A stretch of DNA of 32,000 nucleotides, taken from Longivirga aurantiaca. Its GTDB lineage: Bacteria; Actinomycetota; Actinomycetes; S36-B12; CAIYMF01. Below the pieces are notes generated by a model that did no database searches, was not told the origin of the DNA, and saw only the letters and a list, made by a program, of their open reading frames with translations. This document shows, piece by piece, positions 3,987 to 26,104 of this stretch. Position 1 is the stretch's first letter; each line of letters opens with the position of its first letter. The position numbers were made by a program, and so were the translations under genes. The stretch spans positions 90,001-122,000 of the forward strand of contig NZ_JBHSTI010000008.1 of the NCBI RefSeq assembly GCF_042660085.1, given 5' to 3'.

Positions 3987-6782
3987 TCAGCCGGTGTTGC
4001 GCAGGCCGGTGGCGATGCCGTTGACCGTCAGCAGCAGTGCACGGCGCAGGGTGGGCTCGACGTCGGAGTGCTCGCCGCCTGCCGTCGTCGCGCGGGCACC
4101 GCGGACGCGGGCGAGCAGCTGCACCTGCAGGAGCTGCAGGGGCAGCAGGTACCGGTCGCGGGTGGCGAGGGTCGAGGCGAGCATCGGCTGCGCACCGAGC
4201 AGCTCGGTCTCACCGGTCAGGGCGAGCACCTCCTGCAGGGTCAGCGCGTGCTCGGCCTCGATCGCGGCGAACACGTGCTGCAGCTCGGCTGGCACCAGGG
4301 CGTCGACGTACTCGCGGGCCACCCGCAGATCGGTCTTGGCGAGGGTCATCTCGACGTTGGAGATGAAGTTGCGGAAGAAGTGCCAGCTGGAGTGCATCTC
4401 GTGCAGCGCGTCGCCGAGGCCCGCCTCGCGGGCGGCCCGCAGGCCTGACCCGACACCGAACCAGCCGGGCACGATCTGCCGCGACTGGGTCCAGCCGAAC
4501 ACCCACGGGATCGCGCGCAGCGACTCGATGCCGGCGCCCTCCGTCGCGCGTCGGGCGGGGCGCGAGCCCAGGTGCATGTCGGCGAGCTCCTCGACGGGGG
4601 TGGAGGTCGCGAAGTAGTGCGGCAGGTCGGGGTCGTCGACGAGCGAGCGGTAAGCCTTCTGCGCCTCGGTCGACACGAGGTCCATGGCCGGGTCCCAGTG
4701 CGCGAGGTTCGTCGCGTTCGCCCGCGGCTGCTGGTGCAGCACGGTGGCCTCGACCACCGCGGCGAGCAGCAGCTCGAGGTTCTCGCGCGCGAGCCCGGGC
4801 AGCAGGTACTTGTCGGAGATGACCTCGCCCTGCTCGGTCAGCTTGATCTCGCCGTCGAGGACGCCCCACGGCTGCGACAGCACGGCCTCGTACGTCGGCC
4901 CGCCGCCGCGCCCCACGGTGCCGCCGCGGCCGTGGAACAGCCGCAGCCGCACGCCGTGCGCCCGCGCCACATCGCGGAGCCGGCGCTGCGCGAGGTGGAT
5001 CTCCCACTGCGAGGTCGTGATGCCGGCGTCCTTGTTGGAGTCGGAGTAGCCGAGCATGACCTCCTGCACGTCGCCGCGCAGCGCCACGATCTCCCGGTAC
5101 GACGGGTCGGACAGCAGACCGTCGAGCAGGTCGCCCGCCCGGCGCAGCTCGTCGACGGTCTCGAGCAGCGGGGAGAACCCGACCCGTGCGACGCCGCCGG
5201 CGATGTCGACCAGCCCCGCCTCGCGCGCGAGCACCACGGCCGCAAGGACGTCGTCGACGCCTTTGGTCATCGAGACGATGTAGGTCTCGCACACCTCGGG
5301 GCCGTACTTGTCGAGCGCCTCGCGGATCGCCACGAACGCGCTGTAGGTGCGCAGGTCGTCGCCCTCGAGCGGCGGGGGCGTGGGCGCGAGGGGCCGGCGC
5401 GAGGCCAGCTCGGCCGACAGCAGCCGCAGCCGGTGCTCGCGCGGCAGGTCCTCGTAGCGCCAGCCCTGCTCGCCGAGGCGGTCGACGAGCTTCGCGACGG
5501 CGCTGTGGTGCATCGACGCATGCTCGCGGACGTCGAGCGTGACGAGCGACAGGCCGAACGCGGCCACGGAGCGGATCGCGCGCGCGACCACGCCCCGGGC
5601 AGCCAGCTCGCCGCGGTTCGCCTCGAGCGAGGTCTGCACGAGCATGAGGTCGTCGAGCAGATCGCGCGTGGAGAGGTAGTCGCGCCCCGCGCGGTGCGGC
5701 GTGCCACCGGTGATGCGCGCGCGGGTGTTGACCAGCTTGGCGCGCACGCACGTGAGCTTGAGCCGGTAGGGCTCCTCGGCGTTCAGCCGGCGGTAGCGCG
5801 GGTCGAGCTCGGTGAGCGTCGCGAGGTCGGCGTCGAGCGAGGCGCGCAGCTCGGGCGTCACCTCGTTGAGCCGCTCGGACACCGAGAGGTCCTCGAGCAG
5901 CTTGTCGATGACGGGGAGCAGGTCGCGGATCGCGTGGTCGCGGACGAGGTCGACCACGCGCAGCGTGACGTCGGGCGTGACGAACGGGTTGCCGTCGCGG
6001 TCGCCGCCGATCCACGATCCGAACGACAGCGGCCGGGCGTCGGACGGGAGCTTGACGCCGACGGTCGACAGCGCGTGCGCGAGGTCGTCGAGCACCTCCG
6101 ACACCGGCCCGCTCGCGAGGTCGTCGAGGTAGTAGAGCGCGTTGCGCGCCTCGTCGAGCACCTCGGGGCGGTCGAGGCGCAGCTCGTCGGTCTGCCAGAG
6201 CAGGTCGACGAGCTCGGCGGCACGCGCCGAGACCCGGGCGTCGTCGAGGCCGATGCCGTCGGCCTCGGCGCGGTCGAGCAGGTCGGCGATGGCGCGCAGC
6301 TTCAGGAGCACCGAGCGGCGGGCCGCCTCGGTCGGGTGCGCGGTGAAGACCGGGCGGGCCGACAGACGGGCGACCCCCGCGGCCACCGACTCGGGCGTCA
6401 CCTCGCCGGCGGAGATCGCGGCCGAGATGCGGGTGGCTGCGCGCGAGAGCGGGTCGCCCGCCACACGGCGCGCGTCGCGCTGCTCGCGGGCGCGGTGCAC
6501 CTGCTCGGTCACGTTGGCGAGGTGGAAGTACGTGGAGAACGCCCGCGCCAGCCGGGTCGCGGTCTCCACGTCGAGGCCAGCGAGCAGGTCGGAGGTCTCG
6601 CCGAGGTCGGCGCGGGCGGTCCGGCGGATCTGCTCGACGAGCCCGAGCAGCGACGCCGACTCCTGCCGCACGAGGGTCGCGCCGAGCAGCTCGCCGAGCA
6701 CCCGGATGTCGCGGCGCAGGGCGGCGGTGTCCTCGGAGACGCCGAGGGAGGACTCGAGAGCGAGATGCAGGTCGCCGGTCAT
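3987..6782 (-). CDS. ppc: Phosphoenolpyruvate carboxylase
   Basis: 931 aa. PEPC motifs are [38 protein letters not shown] and the C-terminal [11 protein letters not shown]. Confidence 0.95.
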
Positions 6783-7867: not shown

Positions 7868-9898
7868 TCAGCCGACCGGGACCGGCGACTTCACCTTCGG
7901 GCCGAGGAGGAACGCCCCGGCGTAGAGCAGCGCGGCGAGCCCGAGCAGCGCCGGGTAGCCGACGACGAGCGCGAGGTACTCCAGGCACCCGCCGACCATC
8001 GCGCCGAGCAGGTTGGCCGCGAACGCCCCGGTGGCGTCCTCGGTGGTGTCGAAGCGCGTCGCGAACACGATGTTGGATGCGAAGACGGGGCCGAAGGCGA
8101 TGGCGACGGCCACGACCACGCGCAGCCCCATCGGCAGGCTCAGCAGCCAGGACGTGGGCACGAGCCAGGCGATGAGCAGCGTGGCCCCGAGGAACCCGAA
8201 CGCCACCGGTCTCGACGGGCGCTTCTTCATCCGCCGGGTCACCTCCACGGCGAGCAGCACCACGATGAGCACACCGGCGAACACGATCGCGTTGACCACC
8301 CAGGTGGTGCCGAACAGCAGCGCCGACCACGTCACCGCCCGCGTCTCGAGCAGGAGGAACGCGGCGCCGAGGCACGCGAGGTCGGCGTACGGCGCCATCC
8401 GGCGCAGCGGCCCCCCGATCACGCGCACGGCGATGAGCGAGACCAGCAGCACCATGACGATCACGAGCAGGAACGTGCCCGGGATCGAGGCGTCCTTCAG
8501 GTAGAGGAAGGGGCGCTCGTCGTGCACCGGCGGCGGGCCGGACAGGTCGGTGACGACGGACGCGTCGACGGCGGGGTCGCCGCAGCGCTGGTCGGCCTCG
8601 GTGAGGCCGGCGACGATGACGGCACTGCGCGCGCGGAAGGCATCGACGCACGGGGCGTGCCCGAACGCGGCCTCGGCGGTGTTCGCGAGCCGGCCGATCA
8701 GCCAGTTCTCGCGGTAGTAGTTGTACATCGCGAACGCGCCGCCGGGCTTGAGCACCGCCTTCACGTCCTCGAGCGCCTCCTGGGTGAACAGGTAGCTCTC
8801 GAGCCGCAGCTGGTTGGACCCGGCCACCAGCGTGAGCGAGTCGGGCAGCGCGAAGATCACGAGGTCGTACTTCTTGTCCGTCGTGTGCAGGAAGGCGCGG
8901 CCGTCGCCGATGTACGGCGTGACCCGCGGGTCGTCGTACGGCTTCTGCGGGTGCAGCTCGACACCGAGCTGCTTGATGCGGGGGTCGATCTCGACGGCGT
9001 CCACGCTGGTGGCGCCCTGGCGCAGAGCGAGCGCGACGTCCGACCCGTTGCCGGCCCCGACGACGAGCACGTCGCCCACTGGGCCCTCGGTGATCCGCTC
9101 GTACGGCTGGGCGTAGAAGGGCTCCGCCTCGAGCCGGAAGTCGAGGTCGACGATCGCCTGGTGCGGAACGCCGTTGGCGATGACGGCGTACGCCGGGGTC
9201 TGCGTGCCGGCCTGGTCGGTGGCGACCTGGTCGATCACCTGGATCTTGTAGTACGGCGACCAGATGTCTCCCTCGCGCAGCACGCCGACCGACATCGAGT
9301 AGACGACCACGCCCAGCGCGACCACGGCGATGCCCTGGGTGGTGAGCCGGCTCCCGCCGACCAGCGCCAGCACGAGGGCCGCGATGACGATCGACCAGAC
9401 CACCGGTCCGGCGCCGACGTACGACAGGACGGCGAAGCTCACCGTGCCCGCGAGGCTGCCGAGGAGGTCGAAGCGGTAGGCGTCGAGGCGGGGGAGCTCG
9501 AAGAAGCACTCGGCGACCATGATCGCCGGGCCCATGAGCACCGCGGCGACGGCCACGAAGACCAGCGTGAGGGTGACGACCGGCGGCCATGCGCCCTCGG
9601 TGCTCACCGCGGTGAAGTAGATGAGGTCCGAGCCCGTCTGGTCGACCCCGCCGGGGATGAACGGCACCGCGAGCAGCAGCACGGCGAGGGCGGGGGCGAA
9701 CCATGCCCCGCGGCGGCGGTCCGGCTTGGCCACGAGGAACCCGAGGCCGATGCCGAGGAACGACCCCAGCAGGACGATGTTGGAGAAGTACGACAGGTGC
9801 AGGAGGTTGGCGCCCAGCCAGCGGATGAGCATCAGCTCGGTGAAGAGCATGAGCGCGCTGGCGAGGAAGAGCCGAAGCCTGACCGACATGCGGCGCAT
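7868..9898 (-). CDS. Polytopic membrane protein with a central spermidine-synthase-like (SAM-dependent aminopropyl/methyltransferase) domain
   Basis: ORF 7868..10066. The central domain has VLVVGAGNGSDVALAL (SAM/dcSAM-binding Gly loop), IGDGRAFL and YDLVIFALPDS. Multi-TM hydrophobic regions lie on both sides of it. The start is uncertain: ATG 9898 or ATG 9889 (GAGAGGA lies 8 nt upstream of 9889) is preferred over GTG 10066, which has no Shine-Dalgarno sequence. Confidence 0.7.
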   Translation of the reverse strand: MRRMSVRLRLFLASALMLFTELMLIRWLGANLLHLSYFSNIVLLGSFLGIGLGFLVAKPDRRRGAWFAPALAVLLLAVPFIPGGVDQTGSDLIYFTAVSTEGAWPPVVTLTLVFVAVAAVLMGPAIMVAECFFELPRLDAYRFDLLGSLAGTVSFAVLSYVGAGPVVWSIVIAALVLALVGGSRLTTQGIAVVALGVVVYSMSVGVLREGDIWSPYYKIQVIDQVATDQAGTQTPAYAVIANGVPHQAIVDLDFRLEAEPFYAQPYERITEGPVGDVLVVGAGNGSDVALALRQGATSVDAVEIDPRIKQLGVELHPQKPYDDPRVTPYIGDGRAFLHTTDKKYDLVIFALPDSLTLVAGSNQLRLESYLFTQEALEDVKAVLKPGGAFAMYNYYRENWLIGRLANTAEAAFGHAPCVDAFRARSAVIVAGLTEADQRCGDPAVDASVVTDLSGPPPVHDERPFLYLKDASIPGTFLLVIVMVLLVSLIAVRVIGGPLRRMAPYADLACLGAAFLLLETRAVTWSALLFGTTWVVNAIVFAGVLIVVLLAVEVTRRMKKRPSRPVAFGFLGATLLIAWLVPTSWLLSLPMGLRVVVAVAIAFGPVFASNIVFATRFDTTEDATGAFAANLLGAMVGGCLEYLALVVGYPALLGLAALLYAGAFLLGPKVKSPVPVG

Positions 9899-10192
9899 CC
9901 TCTCGGACCCGGACCCCTCGGGGTGGGAGGTCGCCGAGACCGGCCCCTCCGCGCCGCCCAGGCCTGCCGGCCGGGTGCCCGAGGCAGGCCCCGGCCTGGT
10001 CGGTGGTGACGACCGGTCGGGCCCCCGTCCGAGCCCCGCGAGGGACCGTCCGGGGGCCCGGTTCACCGAGGGCGTAACGGCCGGAGGAACGTCCTGTGCG
10101 CCAGGAGGGTTCTGCGGAGGTGAGCCCTGGGGATACCCGGGCTAGGCTTGCGAGAACGGCCGTGACGCGGCCGCTCGTGGTGAGGAGTGCAG

Positions 10193-15884: not shown

Positions 15885-16529
15885 GTGAGCACGCTGCTGC
15901 GCCCTGTCGGGTCCAAGCCGCCCGGCACCTACTGGGTGCGCCGTGCCCTCGTCCTCCTGATCGTGCTCGCCCTGGTCCTCGGAATCCGGCAGCTCTTCTT
16001 CAGCGGCGGCTCCGCGTCCACCGCGGCCCCCGAGCCGACCGGGTCGTCCTCTGCCGAGCCCGACCCGAACGGCAGCGCATCCCCCTCCACGAGCGCCTCG
16101 CCGAAGCCGTCGTCGAGCGCCAGCTCCGGCATCGGGCCGTGCAAGAACAACCAGATCCAGGTGACGTCCTCGACCGACGCGGCGTCCTACCAGGTCGGCG
16201 CCACGCCGCAGCTGCGCATGCGGATCAAGAACATCTCGAAGTCCGCCTGCCAGCGCGATGTCGGCAGCAAGAACAACGAGCTCGTCATCACCTCGGGCAG
16301 CGCCCGCGTGTGGTCGTCGGACGACTGCAACACCGGCGGCAGCGCGCAGGTCGTGACCCTGCAGCCCGGCCAGAGCTACTCCGTGAACGTCACCTGGCTC
16401 GGGCGTCTCTCGCAGAAGGGGTGCCCGCCCGACCAGCCCATCGCAGACGCCGGCACCTACAAGCTCGTCGGCCGCAACGGCGACGTCAGCTCGGACGGCG
16501 CCGTCTTCTCCCTCACCAAGTCCGCCTGA
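15885..16529 (+). CDS. Membrane-anchored secreted protein (N-terminal TM helix, Ser/Pro-rich linker, 4-Cys beta-rich domain); occupies the position of Rv3587c in the conserved block
   Basis: This is the in-frame distal part of ORF 15081..16529, starting at GTG 15885 (VSTLLRPVGSKPPGTYWVRRALVLLIVLALVLGI = TM anchor). It continues with an S/P-rich linker and a domain with Cys pairs (PCKNN...SACQRD...SSDDCNTG...KGCPPD). It is divergent from mutY. Function is unknown. Confidence 0.65.
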   Translation: MSTLLRPVGSKPPGTYWVRRALVLLIVLALVLGIRQLFFSGGSASTAAPEPTGSSSAEPDPNGSASPSTSASPKPSSSASSGIGPCKNNQIQVTSSTDAASYQVGATPQLRMRIKNISKSACQRDVGSKNNELVITSGSARVWSSDDCNTGGSAQVVTLQPGQSYSVNVTWLGRLSQKGCPPDQPIADAGTYKLVGRNGDVSSDGAVFSLTKSA

Positions 16530-16534
16530 GCACG

Positions 16535-16789
16535 ATGGGGCACAGCCACCGGTCCTGGCGCTCGGAGCGCTCGATCCTGTCGATCGCGTCCACGGGATCC
16601 GTGCTCTCCATCGCCTCGACCGGGTCGGTGCTCTCGATCGGGTCGATCGGGTCGGCCCTGTCGGTCGGGTCGATCGGCTCCGTCCTTAGCCTCTGCTCGA
16701 TCCTGTCGGCAGGCTCGAGCTTCTCCGCGCTGTCGTACCGGTCGTACAAGGCGGCCCTGGCAGCGCACGCGGGCCGCTCGAGCGCCTGA
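16535..16789 (+). CDS. Small (84 aa) serine-periodic repeat protein, (S-x-x)23; function unknown
   Basis: ATG 16535 lies 6 nt after the previous stop. By hand count, about 81 of 85 codons end in G or C. Ser occurs at every third residue from residue 4 to residue 70 and is encoded by both TCN and AGC codons, which argues for selection on the protein. See findings. There is no strong SD, and an antisense frame shares the same third-codon positions, so the coding status is not certain. Confidence 0.5.
   Translation: MGHSHRSWRSERSILSIASTGSVLSIASTGSVLSIGSIGSALSVGSIGSVLSLCSILSAGSSFSALSYRSYKAALAAHAGRSSA
16568..16735 (+). repeat. In-frame 27-nt (9-aa) tandem repeats inside the small Ser-periodic ORF
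   Basis: The units encode RSILSIAST / GSVLSIAST / GSVLSIGSI / GSALSVGSI / GSVLSLCSI, followed by degenerate LSAGSSFSA and LS. TCGATC recurs six times. Confidence 0.8.
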
Positions 16790-16984
16790 TCAGGGCGTCG
16801 CCCCCGACATCCGCCAGGCGCTGGCGCCCGTCGTCGGGCAGCCCCTCGCGGGCCGGGCCGGGCGCGGTCCGGGGGCCGAGTTCCTTCCCCCGTACGGGTC
16901 AAGGACCTGCGACTTCCTGACGATGCCTCCCTCAGAGGACCGGGACGACCGGTTCCGCGAGGCTGCGCAGCGGGAGGGGGTCGC

Positions 16985-18079
16985 GTGTCGATGACCGCGT
17001 CCGACGTCGGCGCGCCGGCCATCCCGGAGCGTCGGGTCTCGACCGTCGTCGTCGCGGGCACGCATGTGCGGCTCGCCCGCCTCAGCCACCTCCTGCAGAT
17101 GTCGGGCGTCGAGGTCCTGGGCGCGGCGAAGACGGCCGAGGACGCCGTGACCCTCGTCGGCACCCTCGGCCCGGACACGGTTCTGCTCGACCTCGCGCTC
17201 GGGGTCGGTGGCCTCGAGGTGGTCGAGCGCGTCATGGCGCGCTGCCCCACGCCGATCGTGCTCATCGGCCCCGCGTCGCAGCAGGCCGACGTCGCGCTCG
17301 CCGCCGGGGCGGTGGACGTCGTGGCTCCGACCGCCGAGCACCTCGGGCCCGGCGCCTTCGCCCGTGTGCTCGGACGTCATCTCAGCGTCGCCAGCCGGGT
17401 CCGGGTCATCACCCACCCGCGCGGCAAGCTCCGCGACCGCGGTCTCGCCTCGGACGGCGTCTCGCCTGCGCCGGTCCAGCACGGCGCCTTCCGCCGTACG
17501 CCGGTGGTCGTCATCGGCGCCTCCACGGGCGGACCGCCCGCCCTCGCCTCCCTCCTCGGATCGCTGCCGCCCGACTTCCCGGCACCGGTGGTCGTCGTCC
17601 AGCACATGGCCGAGGGGTTCGTCGAGGGCCTCGCCGGCTGGCTCGACGGCGTGGTGCCGCTGCCCGTCTCCGTCGCCCTCTCCGGCGACCGCCTGCGCCC
17701 CGGCCATGTCGTGGTCGCCCCGAGCGACGGCAACCTGGTCGTCGAGAGCTCCCTGCGCATCCGGGTGGAGCCGGCGCGCCCCTCGCAGCTGCACGTGCCC
17801 GAGGTCGACCGCACCTTCCGCTCGGTCGCCGAGGTGTGCCGCGACCGCGCCGTCGGCGTCCTGCTCACGGGCATGGGGCGTGACGGCGCAACCGGCCTGC
17901 TCGCGATGCGGCGGGTCGGTGCGTTCACGATCGCCCAGGACGAGAGCACCAGCGCCGTGTGGGGCATGCCGGCCGCTGCGCTCGCGGTCGACGCGGCCTC
18001 GGTCGAGCTGCCGCTCCCCGAGATCGCCGCGGCTGTGCTCGACGCCGTCGCGCGGCTCGCCGTCCCGGAGGCGGTGTGA
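16985..18079 (+). CDS. cheB: Protein-glutamate methylesterase/glutaminase CheB with a degenerate N-terminal receiver domain
   Basis: The C-terminal domain has the CheB catalytic triad contexts VVIGASTGGPPAL (Ser), VVVVQHMAEGF (His) and LLTGMGRDGATGL (Asp). The N-terminal roughly 120 aa has receiver-like topology (VLLDLAL) but lacks the DD pair and the conserved Lys. Confidence 0.85.
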   Translation: MSMTASDVGAPAIPERRVSTVVVAGTHVRLARLSHLLQMSGVEVLGAAKTAEDAVTLVGTLGPDTVLLDLALGVGGLEVVERVMARCPTPIVLIGPASQQADVALAAGAVDVVAPTAEHLGPGAFARVLGRHLSVASRVRVITHPRGKLRDRGLASDGVSPAPVQHGAFRRTPVVVIGASTGGPPALASLLGSLPPDFPAPVVVVQHMAEGFVEGLAGWLDGVVPLPVSVALSGDRLRPGHVVVAPSDGNLVVESSLRIRVEPARPSQLHVPEVDRTFRSVAEVCRDRAVGVLLTGMGRDGATGLLAMRRVGAFTIAQDESTSAVWGMPAAALAVDAASVELPLPEIAAAVLDAVARLAVPEAV

Positions 18080-18080
18080 G

Positions 18081-19481
18081 ATGACCACAGTCGCCCCGAG
18101 CCGTGAGCTCACCGACTCCGAGCACCTGGCCCTCGCCGAGTTCCTCTCGCGGACGGCCGGCCTGGTGTTCGACCGCAGTCGTCGTCCGGCCATCGCCGGG
18201 ATCGTCTCCGACCGCATCGCCGCGACCGGTGCAGCCGACCTCGGTGCCTACCTCGCGCGGGTCAGCGCACCGACGGGCGCCGACGAGCGGCAGCGCCTCC
18301 TCGACGAGGTCACGATCCCCGAGACGCACTTCTTCCGGAACCCGCCGCAGATGCACGCGCTGCAGCACCGTCTGCTGCCCGAGCTCATGCGCCGCGCCGT
18401 CGCCCGCGGCCGCGCGCTGACGATCTGGAGCGCAGGCTGCTCGAGCGGCGAGGAGCCATACTCGCTCGCGATGCTCGCGCTCGAGGTGGCCGAGACGCTG
18501 CCCGAGGCGCCCGAGATCCGCATCGTGGCCACCGACCTCTCCTCCGCCGCGGTCAGCGCGACCGTGCGGGGAAGGTACGCCGGACGCTCCCTCGCCCTCG
18601 TCGAGCCGGAGCGGCTCGAGCGGTTCTTCGCGCCGGGCGTGGGCGGTGCCTTCGAGGTGTCGCCCGAGGTCCGTGCGCTCGTCGACGTACGGCTGCACAA
18701 CCTCGTGACCGACCAGCCGCCGTTCGAGCACGGCGAGGTCGACCTCGTCGTGTGCCGCAACGTCACCATCTACTTCGCGCGCGACACGACCCGCGACCTC
18801 GTCGGACGCTTCCACGGAGTGCTCGGCGCCGGCGGCTACCTGGTGCTCGGCCACGCCGAGACGCTGTGGCAGGTGACCGACGCGTTCACGCTCGTGACCC
18901 TCGGGGACGCGTTCGCCTACCGCAAGGACGTGCCGGTCGTCCGCGTGCCTGAGCCCGAGCCCGAGCCGGAGCCGCGCCCCCGGCGTCCGCTGCCGGCGCC
19001 CCGCGTCGCGCCCCCGCGGCCGCACTCGCGCGACGAGCTCGACCACGTCCCGGACCCCGACCTCGCCACCGACCTGCTGCGCCTCGCCCGCGAGGCGATG
19101 GAGCAGACGAGGTACGGCGAGGCCGCGCGTCTGGCGGCTGCGGCCGCGACGGCGAGCCCGTTCGAGGTCGACGCGTACCTCGTCGAGGGACGCGCCCGCG
19201 CGACCGTCGGCGACGACGCCGGCTCGCTCGTGGCCCTGCGCAAGGCGGTCTACCTGTCGCCCGAGCTCGGGCACGCCCGCTTCGCGCTGGCCGGAGCGCT
19301 GTCGCGCTGCGGCGAGCACGCCGCCGCCGCGCGCGAGTACCGCGCCGCGGCCGTCTCCCTGCCGAGCACGTCGGAGAGCGAGCTCGTCGACCTGCTCGAC
19401 GGCTGCGACGTCGTCCAGCTCGTGACGCTGAGCCGCCGCCTCGCCGACGAGTGCGACCGGCGGGCTGTCGAGGAGGGGTGA
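18081..19481 (+). CDS. cheR: Chemotaxis protein methyltransferase CheR with a C-terminal TPR-like extension
   Basis: ATG 18081 lies 1 nt after the cheB stop. It has a CheR_N region (ETHFFRNPPQMHAL), a SAM-binding core (LTIWSAGCSSGEEPYSLAM, VVCRNVTIYF), a Pro/Glu-rich linker and TPR-like helices (EQTRYGEAARLAAAA...AYLVEGRARATVGDDAGSLVALRKAVYLSPELGHARFALAGAL). Confidence 0.88.
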   Translation: MTTVAPSRELTDSEHLALAEFLSRTAGLVFDRSRRPAIAGIVSDRIAATGAADLGAYLARVSAPTGADERQRLLDEVTIPETHFFRNPPQMHALQHRLLPELMRRAVARGRALTIWSAGCSSGEEPYSLAMLALEVAETLPEAPEIRIVATDLSSAAVSATVRGRYAGRSLALVEPERLERFFAPGVGGAFEVSPEVRALVDVRLHNLVTDQPPFEHGEVDLVVCRNVTIYFARDTTRDLVGRFHGVLGAGGYLVLGHAETLWQVTDAFTLVTLGDAFAYRKDVPVVRVPEPEPEPEPRPRRPLPAPRVAPPRPHSRDELDHVPDPDLATDLLRLAREAMEQTRYGEAARLAAAAATASPFEVDAYLVEGRARATVGDDAGSLVALRKAVYLSPELGHARFALAGALSRCGEHAAAAREYRAAAVSLPSTSESELVDLLDGCDVVQLVTLSRRLADECDRRAVEEG

Positions 19482-19483
19482 GC

Positions 19484-20059
19484 GTGTCCCTGTTCACCGC
19501 TGCACCGACGCCGTCGGCCGCGCGCCGTTCCGCGGCTCCAGCCCCGGCGCCCGCTGCCGTCGAGCCCGGCCCGCGCACGCCGGTGAGCGGCGACGGCGGC
19601 CACGTGCTGTTCGCGGTCGGTGCCACGACCTTCGCCGTCGCCGTGGGCGACGTCCACGAGATCACCCGTGCGCCGCGGCTCGACCTCCTGCCCGAGATCG
19701 ACCGGCCCGGCTACGGCTTGGCCGTCGCGCTCGTCGACGTGCGGGGACGCTCGGTGCCGGTGGTCGACCTGCGCACCGATCGGTCGTGCCCCGGCGATGT
19801 GCTGCTGCCGGTCTACCGGCGGCACGCGGGCCTCGTCGTCGACCGTGTGGTGCGGGTGACCGCTGCGGGCGAGCTCGTGCCCGAGACCGACGAGGTGCCC
19901 GAGACGCTGCCGTCGTGGACGCGCGGGATCGTGCGCCCGGCCGGCGGCGGCGACCCGGTCGTCGTGGTCGCGATGCCCGACGCCGCGGCGATCGAGACCG
20001 GCGGTGCGCGGGCCGGCGAGCCACCGCTCGGGTCGCCGGTGCTCGGCGCCGAGGCCTGA
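19484..20059 (+). CDS. cheW: CheW-like coupling protein
   Basis: GTG 19484 lies 2 nt after the cheR stop. After an Ala/Pro-rich N-terminus comes a CheW-like domain: VLFAVGATTFAVAVGDVHEITRAP...VDVRGRSVPVVDLR...AGLVVDRVVRV. Confidence 0.75.
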   Translation: MSLFTAAPTPSAARRSAAPAPAPAAVEPGPRTPVSGDGGHVLFAVGATTFAVAVGDVHEITRAPRLDLLPEIDRPGYGLAVALVDVRGRSVPVVDLRTDRSCPGDVLLPVYRRHAGLVVDRVVRVTAAGELVPETDEVPETLPSWTRGIVRPAGGGDPVVVVAMPDAAAIETGGARAGEPPLGSPVLGAEA

Positions 20060-20144: not shown

Positions 20145-20699
20145 ATGTCGTCGTACCGACGGACCGTGGTGGGCGACGTCGTGCCTGGCCGCGGCGCCAT
20201 CGCGTTCGCCTGGGCGGTCTCGATCGCCGTGTTCGGGCTGTCCTTCGTCGCCACCCTCGTCGTCACGATGCTGCTGGTGTCGCCCGTCGCGATGCGCGCG
20301 GATGCGAGCAACCCCCTGGGCGTGCAGTGGGACTCCTGGGCGTCGTGGCTCTGCCTCGGCCTCGCCCTGCTCGTGGGGACCCTGATGATCACGGCCGGCG
20401 GGGGCAGCGGCCTCGTGTGGAAGTGGGCGGAGCTGCGCGTGCTCGACGGCACGGGCGCCGTGGCGTCATGGCCTCGGCGTGCGCTGCGGCCGCTCGTGCT
20501 CGGTGTCGTGGTGCTCGCGGTGCTCGCCGTACGGCACGACACCGGGGGTGCGCTGATCGGGATCGCCCTCGTGGGCGTGGCGCTCGGAACGTCGCTGGCT
20601 GCGGCGGACCGCCGCGGGGTGATGGAGCGGGCGCTCGGGCTGCGCGACGTGACCTACGGTCAGGTGCCCGCCCCCGACGACCACCCCGTGACGACCTGA
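20145..20699 (+). CDS. Small integral membrane protein (about 4 TM), possibly RDD-family-like
   Basis: ATG 20145 lies within ORF 20004..20699. Hydrophobic segments include AIAFAWAVSIAVFGLSFVATLVVTMLLV, WLCLGLALLVGTLMI, LVLGVVVLAVLAV and ALIGIALVGVALG. Resemblance to RDD proteins is weak, and the family call has low confidence. Confidence 0.5.
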   Translation: MSSYRRTVVGDVVPGRGAIAFAWAVSIAVFGLSFVATLVVTMLLVSPVAMRADASNPLGVQWDSWASWLCLGLALLVGTLMITAGGGSGLVWKWAELRVLDGTGAVASWPRRALRPLVLGVVVLAVLAVRHDTGGALIGIALVGVALGTSLAAADRRGVMERALGLRDVTYGQVPAPDDHPVTT

Positions 20700-23582: not shown

Positions 23583-23647
23583 CGGCGTTATCCACAGCCC
23601 CCGCATTCATCCTGGCCGCGGTTCCAGGCGGCGTGGAGCCTGAGGGC

Positions 23648-24634
23648 ATGCCTCGCCGCGCCGAGTGGAGCAAGGACGCCGTACGCCTGGTCGCGGCGCG
23701 TCAGCTCGGACTCATCACCAGTGCCCAACTGACCAGCCTGTCGGTTCCGCGGTCGACGATCGCGTGGTCCGAGCAGGTGGGCGGAATGTTCAGCTGGGTC
23801 CTTCCGGGGGTCCACAGGTTCGAGGGCTCTGGCCCGCTCACGCGTGATCAGGAGAACCTCGCGTCGCTCCTCTGCGGCGGGTTCGGATCCATGCTGAGCG
23901 GTGCCCGGGCGTTGGAGCTGTACGGCGTACGCGCGGCCAGGCGCCGCTCGTTCGGTGGTGACCAGTGGGCACTGGTTCTGGTGCCCCACGAGCGCAAGCG
24001 TTCGAGCCGCGAGTTCGTGCGCATCGAGCGGACTCTCTGGCTCCCGGAGCCGAGGAGCCTCGGCCTCGTCCTCGCCGCGCCACCTGCTCGTGCAGCGATG
24101 GACGCTGCCCGCGCGTGCACTGTGGAGGACGACGTCCGGGCGCTCATCTTCGAGGTGGTGCAGCGGGGGATCACGACGCCCGAGGCGCTATCAGACGAGC
24201 GGATCCGCGGCCAGATCCGCGGATCTCGTTTCGCCCGCCTCGCGCTCGAGGAGGTGTTCGCCGGCGTGCGCTCCGTCCCGGAGGGCGACGTACGGCGGAT
24301 CTTCGAATCCCGCGGCGTGACCGGGCTGCTCTACAACCCGATGCTCTACCTGCCCGACGGCAGCTTCCTCTGCTCGCCCGATGCCTACGACCCGCTCACC
24401 GGCACCGCGCTCGAGGTCGACAGCCGCGAGCATCACTTCTCGGTCCAGAGCTGGGAGGCCACGATGCTGCGCCACGGCCGCATGACCGCTGCCGGGCTCG
24501 GAGTCCTGCACTCGCCGCCGAGCCGCATCACGCGGCAACCGGACGACGTCGTCGACGAGTTCTGCCGTACGCAGTCGTCGCGTCTCGGCTGGGTGCCGAC
24601 CGTTGTCGTGCGACCCTCGTCGCCCGCCGCGTGA
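23648..24634 (+). CDS. AbiEi-antitoxin-like N-terminal domain / DUF559-like (Vsr-type endonuclease fold) C-terminal domain protein
   Basis: ATG 23648 (alternative GTG 23633). The N-terminal LVAARQLGLITSAQLTSLSVPRSTIAWSEQVGGMFSWVLPGVHRF matches the AbiEi_4-type winged-helix pattern. The C-terminal PDAYDPLTGTALEVDSREHH...MLRHGRMTAAGLGVLH resembles DUF559. No AbiEii-type partner is adjacent. Confidence 0.6.
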   Translation: MPRRAEWSKDAVRLVAARQLGLITSAQLTSLSVPRSTIAWSEQVGGMFSWVLPGVHRFEGSGPLTRDQENLASLLCGGFGSMLSGARALELYGVRAARRRSFGGDQWALVLVPHERKRSSREFVRIERTLWLPEPRSLGLVLAAPPARAAMDAARACTVEDDVRALIFEVVQRGITTPEALSDERIRGQIRGSRFARLALEEVFAGVRSVPEGDVRRIFESRGVTGLLYNPMLYLPDGSFLCSPDAYDPLTGTALEVDSREHHFSVQSWEATMLRHGRMTAAGLGVLHSPPSRITRQPDDVVDEFCRTQSSRLGWVPTVVVRPSSPAA

Positions 24635-25240: not shown

Positions 25241-26104
25241 CTATTCGGGGTCGGCGGGATGGGGGGCGAAGGGGAGGAGGGCGGCGGCGCGCTCGGCGGG
25301 GGTGCGCTGGCGGGCGGCGACCTTGCGCGCGGCGGTGAGGGCGGCCATGCGCGCCTCGCAGTGCGCCTCGAGGACGTCGTACGCCGGCTGGCCCATGAGC
25401 TCGATCAGCGTGCCCCGCTCGGTGACGTAGACCGGCTCGGGCGCGACATGCGCCTCGGTCGAGCCGCTGCAGTACCAGTCGAGGTCGTGGCCGCCCGGGC
25501 CCCAGCCGCGACGGTCGTACTCGAAGATCTGCACGAGCAGGATCTGCGTGCCGTCGGTGCGCTCGACGTGCTGGAAGGTGCGGCGTACCGGCAGCTGCCA
25601 GCACACGTCGGGCTTCACCTCGAGCGGCTGCTTCCCGATGCGCAGGGCGAGGCTGTGCAGCGAGCACCCCTCGCCACCCTCGAAGCCCTTGCGGTTGAGG
25701 AACACGCACGCGCCGTCGACCACGCGCGTCTTGCGCTGGCCGTCCTCGTCCCTCTCGACGACGCCCTTCTTGCGGCCGGTCTTCTCGTACTGCCACGTCT
25801 CGGGCGTGAGCATCGCGGCGTACTTCTTCATGCGCTTCTCGTCGTCCTTGTCCGAGAAGTGCGCGCCGAGGACGCAGCAGCCGTCGTCCGGCTTGGTCGC
25901 GTCGATGCCGTGGCAGCCGCTGCCGTAGATGCACGTCCATCGGCTCGTGAGCCAGGTGAGGTCGCAGCGGTAGACGGTGGTGCCGTCGGCGTCCGCCGGG
26001 TCGGGGAACTCGATCCACGCGCGTGGGAAGTCCAGCGGCACCTCGTCGCCGCGTCCGATGACGACGTCGACCGGACCGCTCTTCTTCTTGCCTCCACCAG
26101 CCAC
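25241..26104 (-). CDS. DUF3027 domain-containing protein (Cys-rich, actinobacteria-specific)
   Basis: 287 aa with a GTG start. Cys-rich motifs are [52 protein letters not shown] and [11 protein letters not shown], as I remember them for DUF3027. Confidence 0.75.

Follow-up and report, generated by a model that had tools for sequence, protein, structure and literature searches.

The stretch of DNA analysed here, 32,000 nt of the Longivirga aurantiaca genome (contig NZ_JBHSTI010000008.1, positions 90,001 to 122,000 of the forward strand; hereafter the window, whose own coordinates are used throughout), has a G+C content of 72% and contains at 16535..16789 on the forward strand a complete open reading frame (ORF) of 84 codons followed by TGA, the translation of which belongs to an undescribed family of small proteins, here called the 'Ser-x-x ladder' family. 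Serine stands at residues 4, 7 ... 70 of the 84-aa product, which gives a ladder of 23 consecutive Ser-x1-x2 triplets (residues 4-70; 16544..16744, +) with mostly I, V or A at x1 and mostly G or L at x2. The original prediction, made from the letters of the sequence, had given this translation and its 23 triplets exactly and had put the share of G or C at third codon positions (GC3) at about 95%, close to the 94.1% that we measured. The runner-up among period-3 runs of any residue, counted in all six frames of the window, comprises eight triplets, and the Ser ladder is a unique outlier within these 32 kb, far beyond chance.

The ORF begins with an N-terminal flank, MGHSHRSWRSER (16535..16570, +), that is rich in Trp, Arg and His, is already in the Ser-x-x register and matches the family motif (R)WS(L/I)(W/R)SE.S.LSI in alignment. 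It continues with an uncharged, proline-free core of 56 residues, SILSIAST...SSFSALSY (16571..16738, +), composed of Ser, Gly, Ile, Leu, Val and Ala, and ends with a C-terminal flank and short tail, RSYKAALAAHAGRSSA (16739..16786, +), which carries positive charge and corresponds to the family motif SRWS.LSWRS. Imperfect 27-nt (9-aa) tandem repeats with GSVLSI(A/G)S(T/I) units occupy 16583..16677 (+), where TRF reported two overlapping arrays with a period of 27 nt and 2.7 copies (80-82% matches, no indels) as well as a 9-nt sub-period with 4.9 copies at 16634-16677. Five such 9-aa units had been described as 27-nt DNA repeats; all five are visible in the protein (residues 13-56), whereas only about 3.5 can be recognised at the DNA level. 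That the Ser periodicity outruns the repeats was seen correctly, as the DNA-repetitive part measures about 95 nt and the Ser period runs on for about 100 nt more, on both sides of it; the second half of the ladder keeps its serines though it is without DNA repetition. The Ser codons of the ORF are TCG (16), TCC (6) and AGC (4), and the identical protein is encoded on five independent Logan contigs.

Immediately upstream lies the gene for a 214-aa protein (15885-16529, +), the stop codon of which (16527-16529) ends 5 nt before the ladder ATG at 16535, so that sequence and gene calls together place a TGA-gcacg-ATG stop-start junction at 16527..16537 (+). Judged from this layout, co-transcription or translational coupling of the ladder ORF with the upstream gene is possible. 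We found no Shine-Dalgarno-like sequence before the ladder ATG; scans of the ORF and its surroundings for RNA elements, promoters and terminators gave no Rfam match of note and no consensus signal of either kind. About 200 nt 3′ of the ladder ORF begins the gene for CheB (Pfam CheB_methylest, 5e-58), followed by those for CheR and CheW, and the ORF had thus been placed accurately between the gene for a membrane-anchored protein and a cheB-cheR-cheW cluster.

Evidence from related loci

Base composition does not separate the two strands at the ladder. The antisense frame that shares its wobble position with the sense frame reads as DPI/DPV/EST repeats and belongs to a 250-codon ORF (16513-17265, −); at the ladder its GC3 is 0.95, equal to that of the sense frame, and its excess of G+C at first over second codon positions (GC1>GC2) is the more typical pattern. 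GC3 was tried as a strand criterion and proved indecisive, since the antisense frame uses the same wobble position, and because composition cannot separate the strands, the choice between them was made by comparative data. The 250-codon antisense ORF as a whole reaches across the ladder gene and the intergenic stretch into the beginning of cheB, with a GC3 of 0.85-0.95, and at many homologous ladder loci a simple GC3-based gene picker preferred the antisense frame.

The closest relative of the locus, L009, is a contig from a metagenome-assembled genome (MAG) of an uncultured member of the Actinomycetes, with the same gene order as the window and flanking DNA that is about 82% identical. Its ladder ORF also has 84 codons and is 89% identical to that of the window; 28 codons differ, 19 of them synonymously and 9 by replacement, and between residues 15 and 70 every change is synonymous. 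Read in the antisense shared-wobble frame, the same substitutions amount to 7 synonymous changes, 22 replacements and one stop. A more distant copy, L055 (55% GC), encodes SILSIASTGSILSIASTGSVLSIGSIGSVLSIGSVGSVLS with AGY at 12 of 14 ladder positions, against TCG/TCC in the window; its sense peptide is nearly the same as the window's, whereas its antisense peptide (LPTLPILNTLP...) is unrelated to the antisense peptide of the window (DPIDPTDRADP...). Furthermore, stops interrupt the antisense shared-wobble frame inside the ladder in 9 of 85 loci, and at one locus (L050, 61% GC) the antisense frame contains two stops, against none in the sense frame and in one other forward frame.

Because L009, L055 and the antisense stops agree, we conclude that selection acts on the Ser-ladder protein. 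The original prediction had argued from the mixture of TCN and AGC codons for selection on the amino acid rather than on a DNA motif. Within the window this argument is weak, as AGC encodes 2 of the 23 ladder serines; across the family, as judged from the AGY codons of L055 and the synonymous-only divergence of the ladder core from L009, it is decisive. The antisense frame, which the prediction had allowed for, was not supported by the replacements, the stop and the interruptions listed above, and on these comparisons the 250-codon antisense ORF is a compositional artefact. We are highly confident that the ladder ORF encodes a real, conserved protein.

The same comparisons bear on the idea that the ORF has no function and is a by-product, held open by base composition, of a GC-rich tandem repeat or of another gene that overlaps it or lies antisense to it. 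Such a by-product would agree with a ladder that is partly 27-nt/9-nt tandem DNA and dominated by TCG (the AGY share of ladder codons across the 85 loci is only 9%), with an antisense frame that is open over 250 codons at equal GC3, and with an ATG that no Shine-Dalgarno sequence precedes. It is hard to reconcile with a core that diverges synonymously only while the antisense frame takes replacements and a stop, with a peptide retained in AGY codons at 55% GC, with non-repetitive flanking motifs kept across classes, with Ser kept in the non-repetitive second half of the ladder and with the 1362 family representatives reported below. We regard this idea as extremely improbable and, on the sequence comparisons, as largely refuted already.

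The AGY-rich copy (L055:6007-6285) lies on a contig labelled Anaerolinea, from a Chloroflexota MAG and hence outside Actinomycetota; it represents either a transfer adapted to the codon usage of the host or a binning error.

An unnamed family of small proteins

A word-indexed protein search returned 340 homologues at E<=0.01, all of them small, without a Pfam domain and called "hypothetical protein" wherever named, and a profile search of 1.84 billion cluster representatives returned 1362 at E<=1e-3 and 787 at E<=1e-10. In a scan of one genome per GTDB species with a 7-sequence alignment as query, at least 564 loci were found, in Actinomycetes and Acidimicrobiia. Carriers among the matches listed are Streptomyces, Kitasatospora, Embleya, Actinoplanes, Kribbella, Nocardioides, Cellulomonas, Sinomonas, Microlunatus and Mumia, together with a Mycobacterium MAG and many MAGs of Acidimicrobiia and other uncultured actinobacteria; the Rhodococcus and Nocardia homologues come from the protein search. 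Cultured carriers include Rhodococcus pyridinivorans (WP_200359685.1) and Cellulomonas cellasea. Copies near-identical to homologue P0004 (98.7%, residues 6-82) are located on ~124-128-kb plasmids of Streptomyces zaomyceticus (NZ_CP108526.1, NZ_CP108226.1 and four others; H1-H6), where they are annotated as hypothetical. A phage origin was considered and rejected, as tblastn gave no match in 50,697 phage records and only one locus turned up in 2.9 million viral contigs.

The ladder is what defines this family. Across 227 members it comprises 14-29 triplets, mostly 19-26, with a median of 22; Ser occupies 98% of the ladder positions, with I, V or A at x1 and G or L at x2. Of 211 distances from the conserved N motif to the conserved C motif, 210 are divisible by 3, in line with the expectation of the original prediction that frame and Ser positions are conserved in homologues and that indels comprise whole triplets only. 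A 9-residue superperiod (consensus SIG-SVG-SVL) overlies the triplets across the whole family: at a lag of three triplets a large x2 residue recurs with a frequency of 0.68 against a base of 0.44, and an x2 Gly with 0.67 against 0.42. The family core consists of 35% S and 18% G, with less than 2% charged residues, 0% Pro and 0.2% His.

Both flanks stay in the Ser-x-x register but turn to Trp, Arg and Glu, with Trp present in the N and the C flank, a C flank motif LSA.SRWS.LSWRS and a mean net charge of +0.8 (N) and +1.4 (C). An ATG or GTG is found 3-54 nt (1-18 codons) before the ladder in nearly all of the 85 loci. The tails that follow the ladder vary among members. In 85 of 226 homologues (38%) a hydrophobic C-terminal 15-mer is followed by at least two Arg/Lys at the extreme end; 36 of the 226 have a tail of at most 20 aa, and these include the window copy, the tail of which (RSYKAALAAHAGRSSA) is not hydrophobic and is without the tail helix and Arg cluster of that 38%. 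In a Rhodococcus/Nocardia subgroup (L007:8001-8384 and proteins P0064, P0065, P0083 and P0120) the hydrophobic tail is swapped for a conserved acidic, Cys-rich end, DEPDLC.DPTCHCQT/S, which could be a metal-binding or modification site. A twin-arginine signal, for which N flanks such as SRRSLLS in a few members had been considered, was rejected, as the usual RWS.(W/R)SE is without paired Arg. Domain fusions were also rejected, the longer database entries (up to 384 aa) being Arg-rich N-terminal over-extensions of high-GC ORFs.

No described counterpart was found. In Pfam, the window protein had no match at E<=1 and 30 homologues yielded nothing above noise; in PADLOC-DB, no family reached E<=1 with the window protein or with five homologues. 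A full-text literature search for ladder motifs or descriptions of Ser-x-x tripeptide repeats yielded nothing relevant. The matches of a PDB profile search were rejected, as they were only engineered (GSA)n/(GST)n linkers and reflect composition, not homology. The sole NCBIfam match was HxsA4, a His-Xaa-Ser repeat protein (NF038313), at 13.5 bits and E=0.1 with a cut-off of 55 bits, so that no sequence similarity of the window protein to named families lies above cut-off in Pfam or NCBIfam. The original prediction knew of no described family with this pattern, and none emerged from Pfam, NCBIfam, PADLOC, the PDB or the literature searched; as far as these sources go, the ladder is a repeat without a described counterpart. 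Serine-rich repeat proteins (SRRPs) are very large Gram-positive adhesins of Ser-periodic low complexity, with dipeptide (S-x) repeats, an LPXTG anchor and genes for SecA2/Y2 and glycosyltransferases. Unlike these, the ladder protein has 84 aa and a period of 3, with none of the SRRP accessory genes nearby. By sequence, the window ORF belongs, as a member with a short tail, to a conserved but unnamed family of small proteins that stand alone and come mainly from Actinomycetota. All of the conserved core of this family is a (Ser-[I/V/A]-[G/L])~22 ladder between Trp/Arg-rich flanks.

Neighbourhoods of the ladder gene

The window follows the order of a conserved actinobacterial block, lysS - ppc - clpC - GT87 - gyrI-like - mutY ... 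disA - radA, and between mutY and disA lie the gene for the 214-aa protein, the ladder ORF, cheB-cheR-cheW and a 184-aa ORF. A link of the ladder protein to cheB-cheR-cheW or to the upstream membrane-anchored protein, as the original prediction had suggested from their adjacency, did not extend beyond the closest relative: only L009 has the window's gene arrangement around the ladder ORF, and the 83 other loci have unrelated neighbours. These were surveyed on crude GC3-based gene maps by Pfam scans and BLAST clustering of the ±3 genes, with gene calls additionally made around three homologues. The commonest Pfam families were TED and PLipase_C_C upstream (6 of 83 each) and Transgly_assoc downstream (5 of 82, with CheB once), while Radical_SAM occurred in 2 of the 83 upstream neighbours and ranked outside the 25 most frequent downstream families. 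Clusters among the ±3 genes reflect synteny among close relatives only; in the 83 loci no neighbour family recurred beyond such local synteny, and no glycosyltransferase or other modifying gene was consistently linked. The 214-aa protein is unrelated to the protein encoded upstream of the ladder in Rhodococcus, and it is not homologous to its counterparts in other genera. The family gene often lies at most 60 nt 3′ of a co-directional, unrelated gene and is often the last one before a convergent gene. Because neighbourhoods differ across loci, the ladder gene appears to have no dedicated linked partner. Links to cheBRW, GT87, TED or radical-SAM genes were rejected as family features, having been seen only as local synteny, and on this comparison of loci the adjacency to cheBRW is incidental and lineage-specific.

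This survey weighs on whether the protein might be the precursor of a ribosomally synthesised and post-translationally modified peptide (RiPP), with the Ser ladder modified in a three-residue register by dehydration, cyclodehydration, cross-linking or epimerisation. The analogy would be with radical-SAM systems of the His-Xaa-Ser and triceptide types. The idea draws on HxsA4 as the sole database match of any kind, on a variable N-terminal region followed by a repetitive core, which resembles a leader-core layout, and on the conserved Cys-rich end of the Rhodococcus/Nocardia subgroup. In HxsA, five H-x-S repeats are accompanied by a signal peptide and a peptidoglycan-binding domain, and its maturation in the HXS anti-phage system is carried out by two radical-SAM enzymes encoded next to it, HxsB and HxsC, with HxsD; all three are required beside HxsA (PMC13128918). 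The ladder shares with HxsA (NF038313) a tandem three-residue repeat with Ser at each third position, but it is without His in the repeat (S-[IVA]-[GL]), has about 22 hydrophobic repeats and has no linked radical-SAM gene; the neighbours in the window encode GT87, a GyrI-like protein, MutY, the 214-aa protein, CheB, CheR and CheW, and no HxsB, HxsC or HxsD. The 13.5 bits are far under the cut-off, no radical-SAM, YcaO or Lan-type gene adjoins the window ORF, and the repeat has no aromatic residue. Across the 83 upstream and 82 downstream neighbours, moreover, the top Pfam family occurs six times and Radical_SAM twice, with only local synteny at ±3 genes. A RiPP precursor therefore seems very unlikely to us.

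Two groups of Streptomyces loci have conserved neighbours of their own. In L049, L056, L075, L080, L081 and L084 (about 4300-6000 +) the ladder gene lies directly 3′ of the gene for a homologous, co-directional ~500-aa protein, and in L026, L028, L032, L040 and L072 (about 6360-6710 +) a homologous 88-aa ORF follows the ladder gene. In these two paralogue groups, the ~500-aa proteins are probably the six thioester-domain (TED) matches and the 88-aa ORFs probably the five Transgly_assoc (GlsB/YeaQ-type) matches.

Within the window, the 214-aa protein upstream of the ladder combines a hydrophobic anchor at its N-terminus, a linker rich in Ser and Pro, and a C-terminal domain that matches DUF4232 only weakly (E=0.022). 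The cheB-cheR-cheW genes (16985-20059, +) lie between mutY and disA/radA in the otherwise conserved clpC-mutY-disA-radA housekeeping block. No cheA, cheY or receptor gene was identified in the annotated parts of the window, and the receiver domain of CheB falls just under its Pfam cut-off (29.3 vs 30.2 bits). ORFs without a Pfam match at E<=1e-5 are located at 20145-20699 (+; 184 aa, directly after cheW), 23633-24634 (+; 333 aa) and 25241-26104 (−; 287 aa). A 732-aa protein encoded between ppc and clpC (7868-10066, −) shows only a central spermine/spermidine-synthase-like domain (E=4e-8).

Possible structures of the ladder protein

We tentatively favour the view that the ladder protein is a small membrane-embedded protein, most simply a helical hairpin, that self-associates and is autonomous. 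Its uncharged, Pro-free core of 50-56 Ser, Gly and aliphatic residues would be seated in the cytoplasmic membrane, in the simplest topology as a hairpin of helices whose two Trp/Arg flanks, each positively charged, would lie at the interface with the cytoplasm. Self-association would be mediated by the many small-residue (Ser/Gly) contacts, the protein would work alone without a dedicated partner enzyme, and many relatives would add a C-terminal tail-anchor helix. In the membrane, the ladder might line a pore, form a polar seam, contribute to packing or be a target of modification.

The uncharged, Pro-free stretch has a family median of 50 aa (5-95%: 39-70) and measures 56 aa in the window, with a mean Kyte-Doolittle value of 1.2; from its recurrence across a diverse family, we infer that such a composition is the signature of a water-shielded segment. 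A hairpin with both ends cytoplasmic is suggested because the length of the stretch and the two positive flanks fit, the expectation being some 45-55 uncharged residues between positive flanks. Further support comes from Trp in both flanks, from the tail anchor-like end in 85 of 226 homologues and from a helix that AlphaFold2 placed at residues 41-83, and the lack of a conserved neighbour fits an autonomous small protein. The helix has to be seen within models of low confidence: AlphaFold2 was run twice, with alignments of 30 and 121 sequences, and returned a predicted local distance difference test (pLDDT) score of 50 and 55, with residues 41-83 helical at pLDDT 50-77, the first ladder half as coil, values above 70 solely in the C-terminal flank (16739..16786) and no strands. 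E. coli ElaB and YqjD are tail-anchored small membrane proteins. Bacterial proteins of this kind are also reported from Streptomyces (the TAMPs; PMC3087755). The ladder family resembles such proteins in its small size, in the lack of an N-terminal signal peptide and in the C-terminal hydrophobic helix followed by Arg/Lys in 38% of its members. It differs from them in that the window copy is without a tail helix and the conserved part of the family is the ladder and not the anchor.

Several observations weigh against a membrane-embedded hairpin. Hydrophobicity is borderline, with a plateau of 1.1-1.7 and a maximum of 1.74 in a 19-residue Kyte-Doolittle profile, and on a summed Hessa-type scale the best 19-mer scores +2.6 (window) to +3.9 kcal/mol, which is marginal for spontaneous insertion. 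An alpha-helix, with 3.6 residues per turn, distributes period-3 positions evenly round its surface, and a helical hairpin explains neither the 98% Ser at a strict period of 3, nor the triplet-only indels, nor the 9-residue superperiod. The AlphaFold2 confidence is low, with the first half of the ladder as coil, the window copy has no tail anchor, and in members that have one, two hairpin spans plus a third, tail-anchor span would place the terminal Arg cluster outside the cell. The remark in the original prediction that a strict period of 3 is atypical of a transmembrane helix is thus geometrically right; the composition still makes membrane embedding the leading reading.

Since an alpha-helix does not account for the period of 3, a true three-fold geometry or a uniform chemistry of the Ser stripe comes into consideration. 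The chain would then form a helix of the polyproline II (PPII) or 3-10 type, or a beta-solenoid in which each coil takes up 9 or 18 residues, and assemble into a rod or bundle with one stripe of Ser, one of I/V/A and one of G/G/L. Leu would pack as a knob into holes left by Gly-Gly, for instance in a trimer whose chains are offset by one triplet, and the Ser stripe might be uniformly modified, e.g. O-glycosylated as is Thr in fish antifreeze glycoproteins. Such a rod would explain what the hairpin does not, namely the strict period with its 98% Ser occupancy, the triplet-only length changes and the superperiod at x2 (large residues 0.68 vs 0.44, Gly 0.67 vs 0.42). It would also agree with the narrow length spread of 19-26 triplets in most members and with I and V at x1, since beta-branched residues favour extended conformations, and an obligate oligomer would be expected to give no confident monomeric AlphaFold2 fold.

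Known three-fold proteins, among them the collagen- and PPII-type proteins to which the original prediction had likened the period of 3, resemble the ladder only in part. Collagen and the PPII bundle of the snow-flea antifreeze protein, the latter similar in size to the ladder protein, have a strict three-residue period with one small residue per triplet, and the period of 3 over tens of residues is common to these Gly-x-x proteins and the ladder family. In the latter, however, the fixed residue is Ser, Gly makes up only ~42% of x2, Pro is at 0% and the core is aliphatic and uncharged, so that neither the Pro nor the Gly at every third position of such rods is found; the best match to Pfam Collagen (E=0.056, in 1 of 30 members) is not significant. 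Fish antifreeze glycoproteins, (Ala-Ala-Thr)n, carry a hydroxyl residue at each third position and are eukaryotic, secreted and Ala-rich, with every Thr glycosylated. The ladder family is unlike them in having no conserved glycosyltransferase neighbour and no signal peptide. The ladder can also be divided into hexads of the form [IV]-[GL]-S-[VI]-[GL]-S, in the manner of the Hexapep left-handed beta-helix, of which an 18-residue coil would stack the superperiod in register. Unlike in Hexapep ([LIV]-[GAED]-x-x-[STAV]-x), the small residue at i+4 is not of the STAV type, the low-confidence AlphaFold2 models contain no beta structure, and Pfam Hexapep gave no match at E<=1 for the window protein and 30 homologues. 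Beta-solenoids are usually predicted readily by AlphaFold2, yet none was predicted here, and matches to neither Hexapep nor Collagen rise above noise. A modified rod lacks a consistently linked glycosyltransferase or modifying gene in the 83 loci, and for a rod at the cell surface no signal peptide is evident. We consider a three-fold rod unlikely, ranking it by confidence after the membrane-embedded protein and ahead of the RiPP precursor, which in turn precedes the non-functional ORF; the rest of our confidence goes to none of these four.

With more than 1000 sequence clusters in two classes of Actinomycetota, the ladder proteins form a family for which we found no name, domain model, structure or paper. 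Because the gene is small, repetitive and often without an obvious ribosome-binding site, and because the antisense GC3 is equally good, annotation pipelines are likely to miss ladder genes or to call them on the wrong strand, and current structure prediction does not resolve the family. Near-perfect Ser at a period of 3 over ~66 hydrophobic, uncharged residues points to an unusual fold, an unusual assembly or a uniform chemistry of Ser, because the geometry of common secondary structure does not explain this period. There is some chance, which we rate as low, that the Ser ladder embodies a new structural principle, a Ser-based counterpart of the Gly-x-y and Ala-Ala-Thr repeats, arranged with three-fold geometry as a helical rod or bundle within the membrane or at its surface. 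If so, a continuous stripe of ~22 hydroxyl groups would be a polar seam, a conduction path or a site of uniform modification, and the Leu-Gly-Gly superperiod would fix the register between strands.

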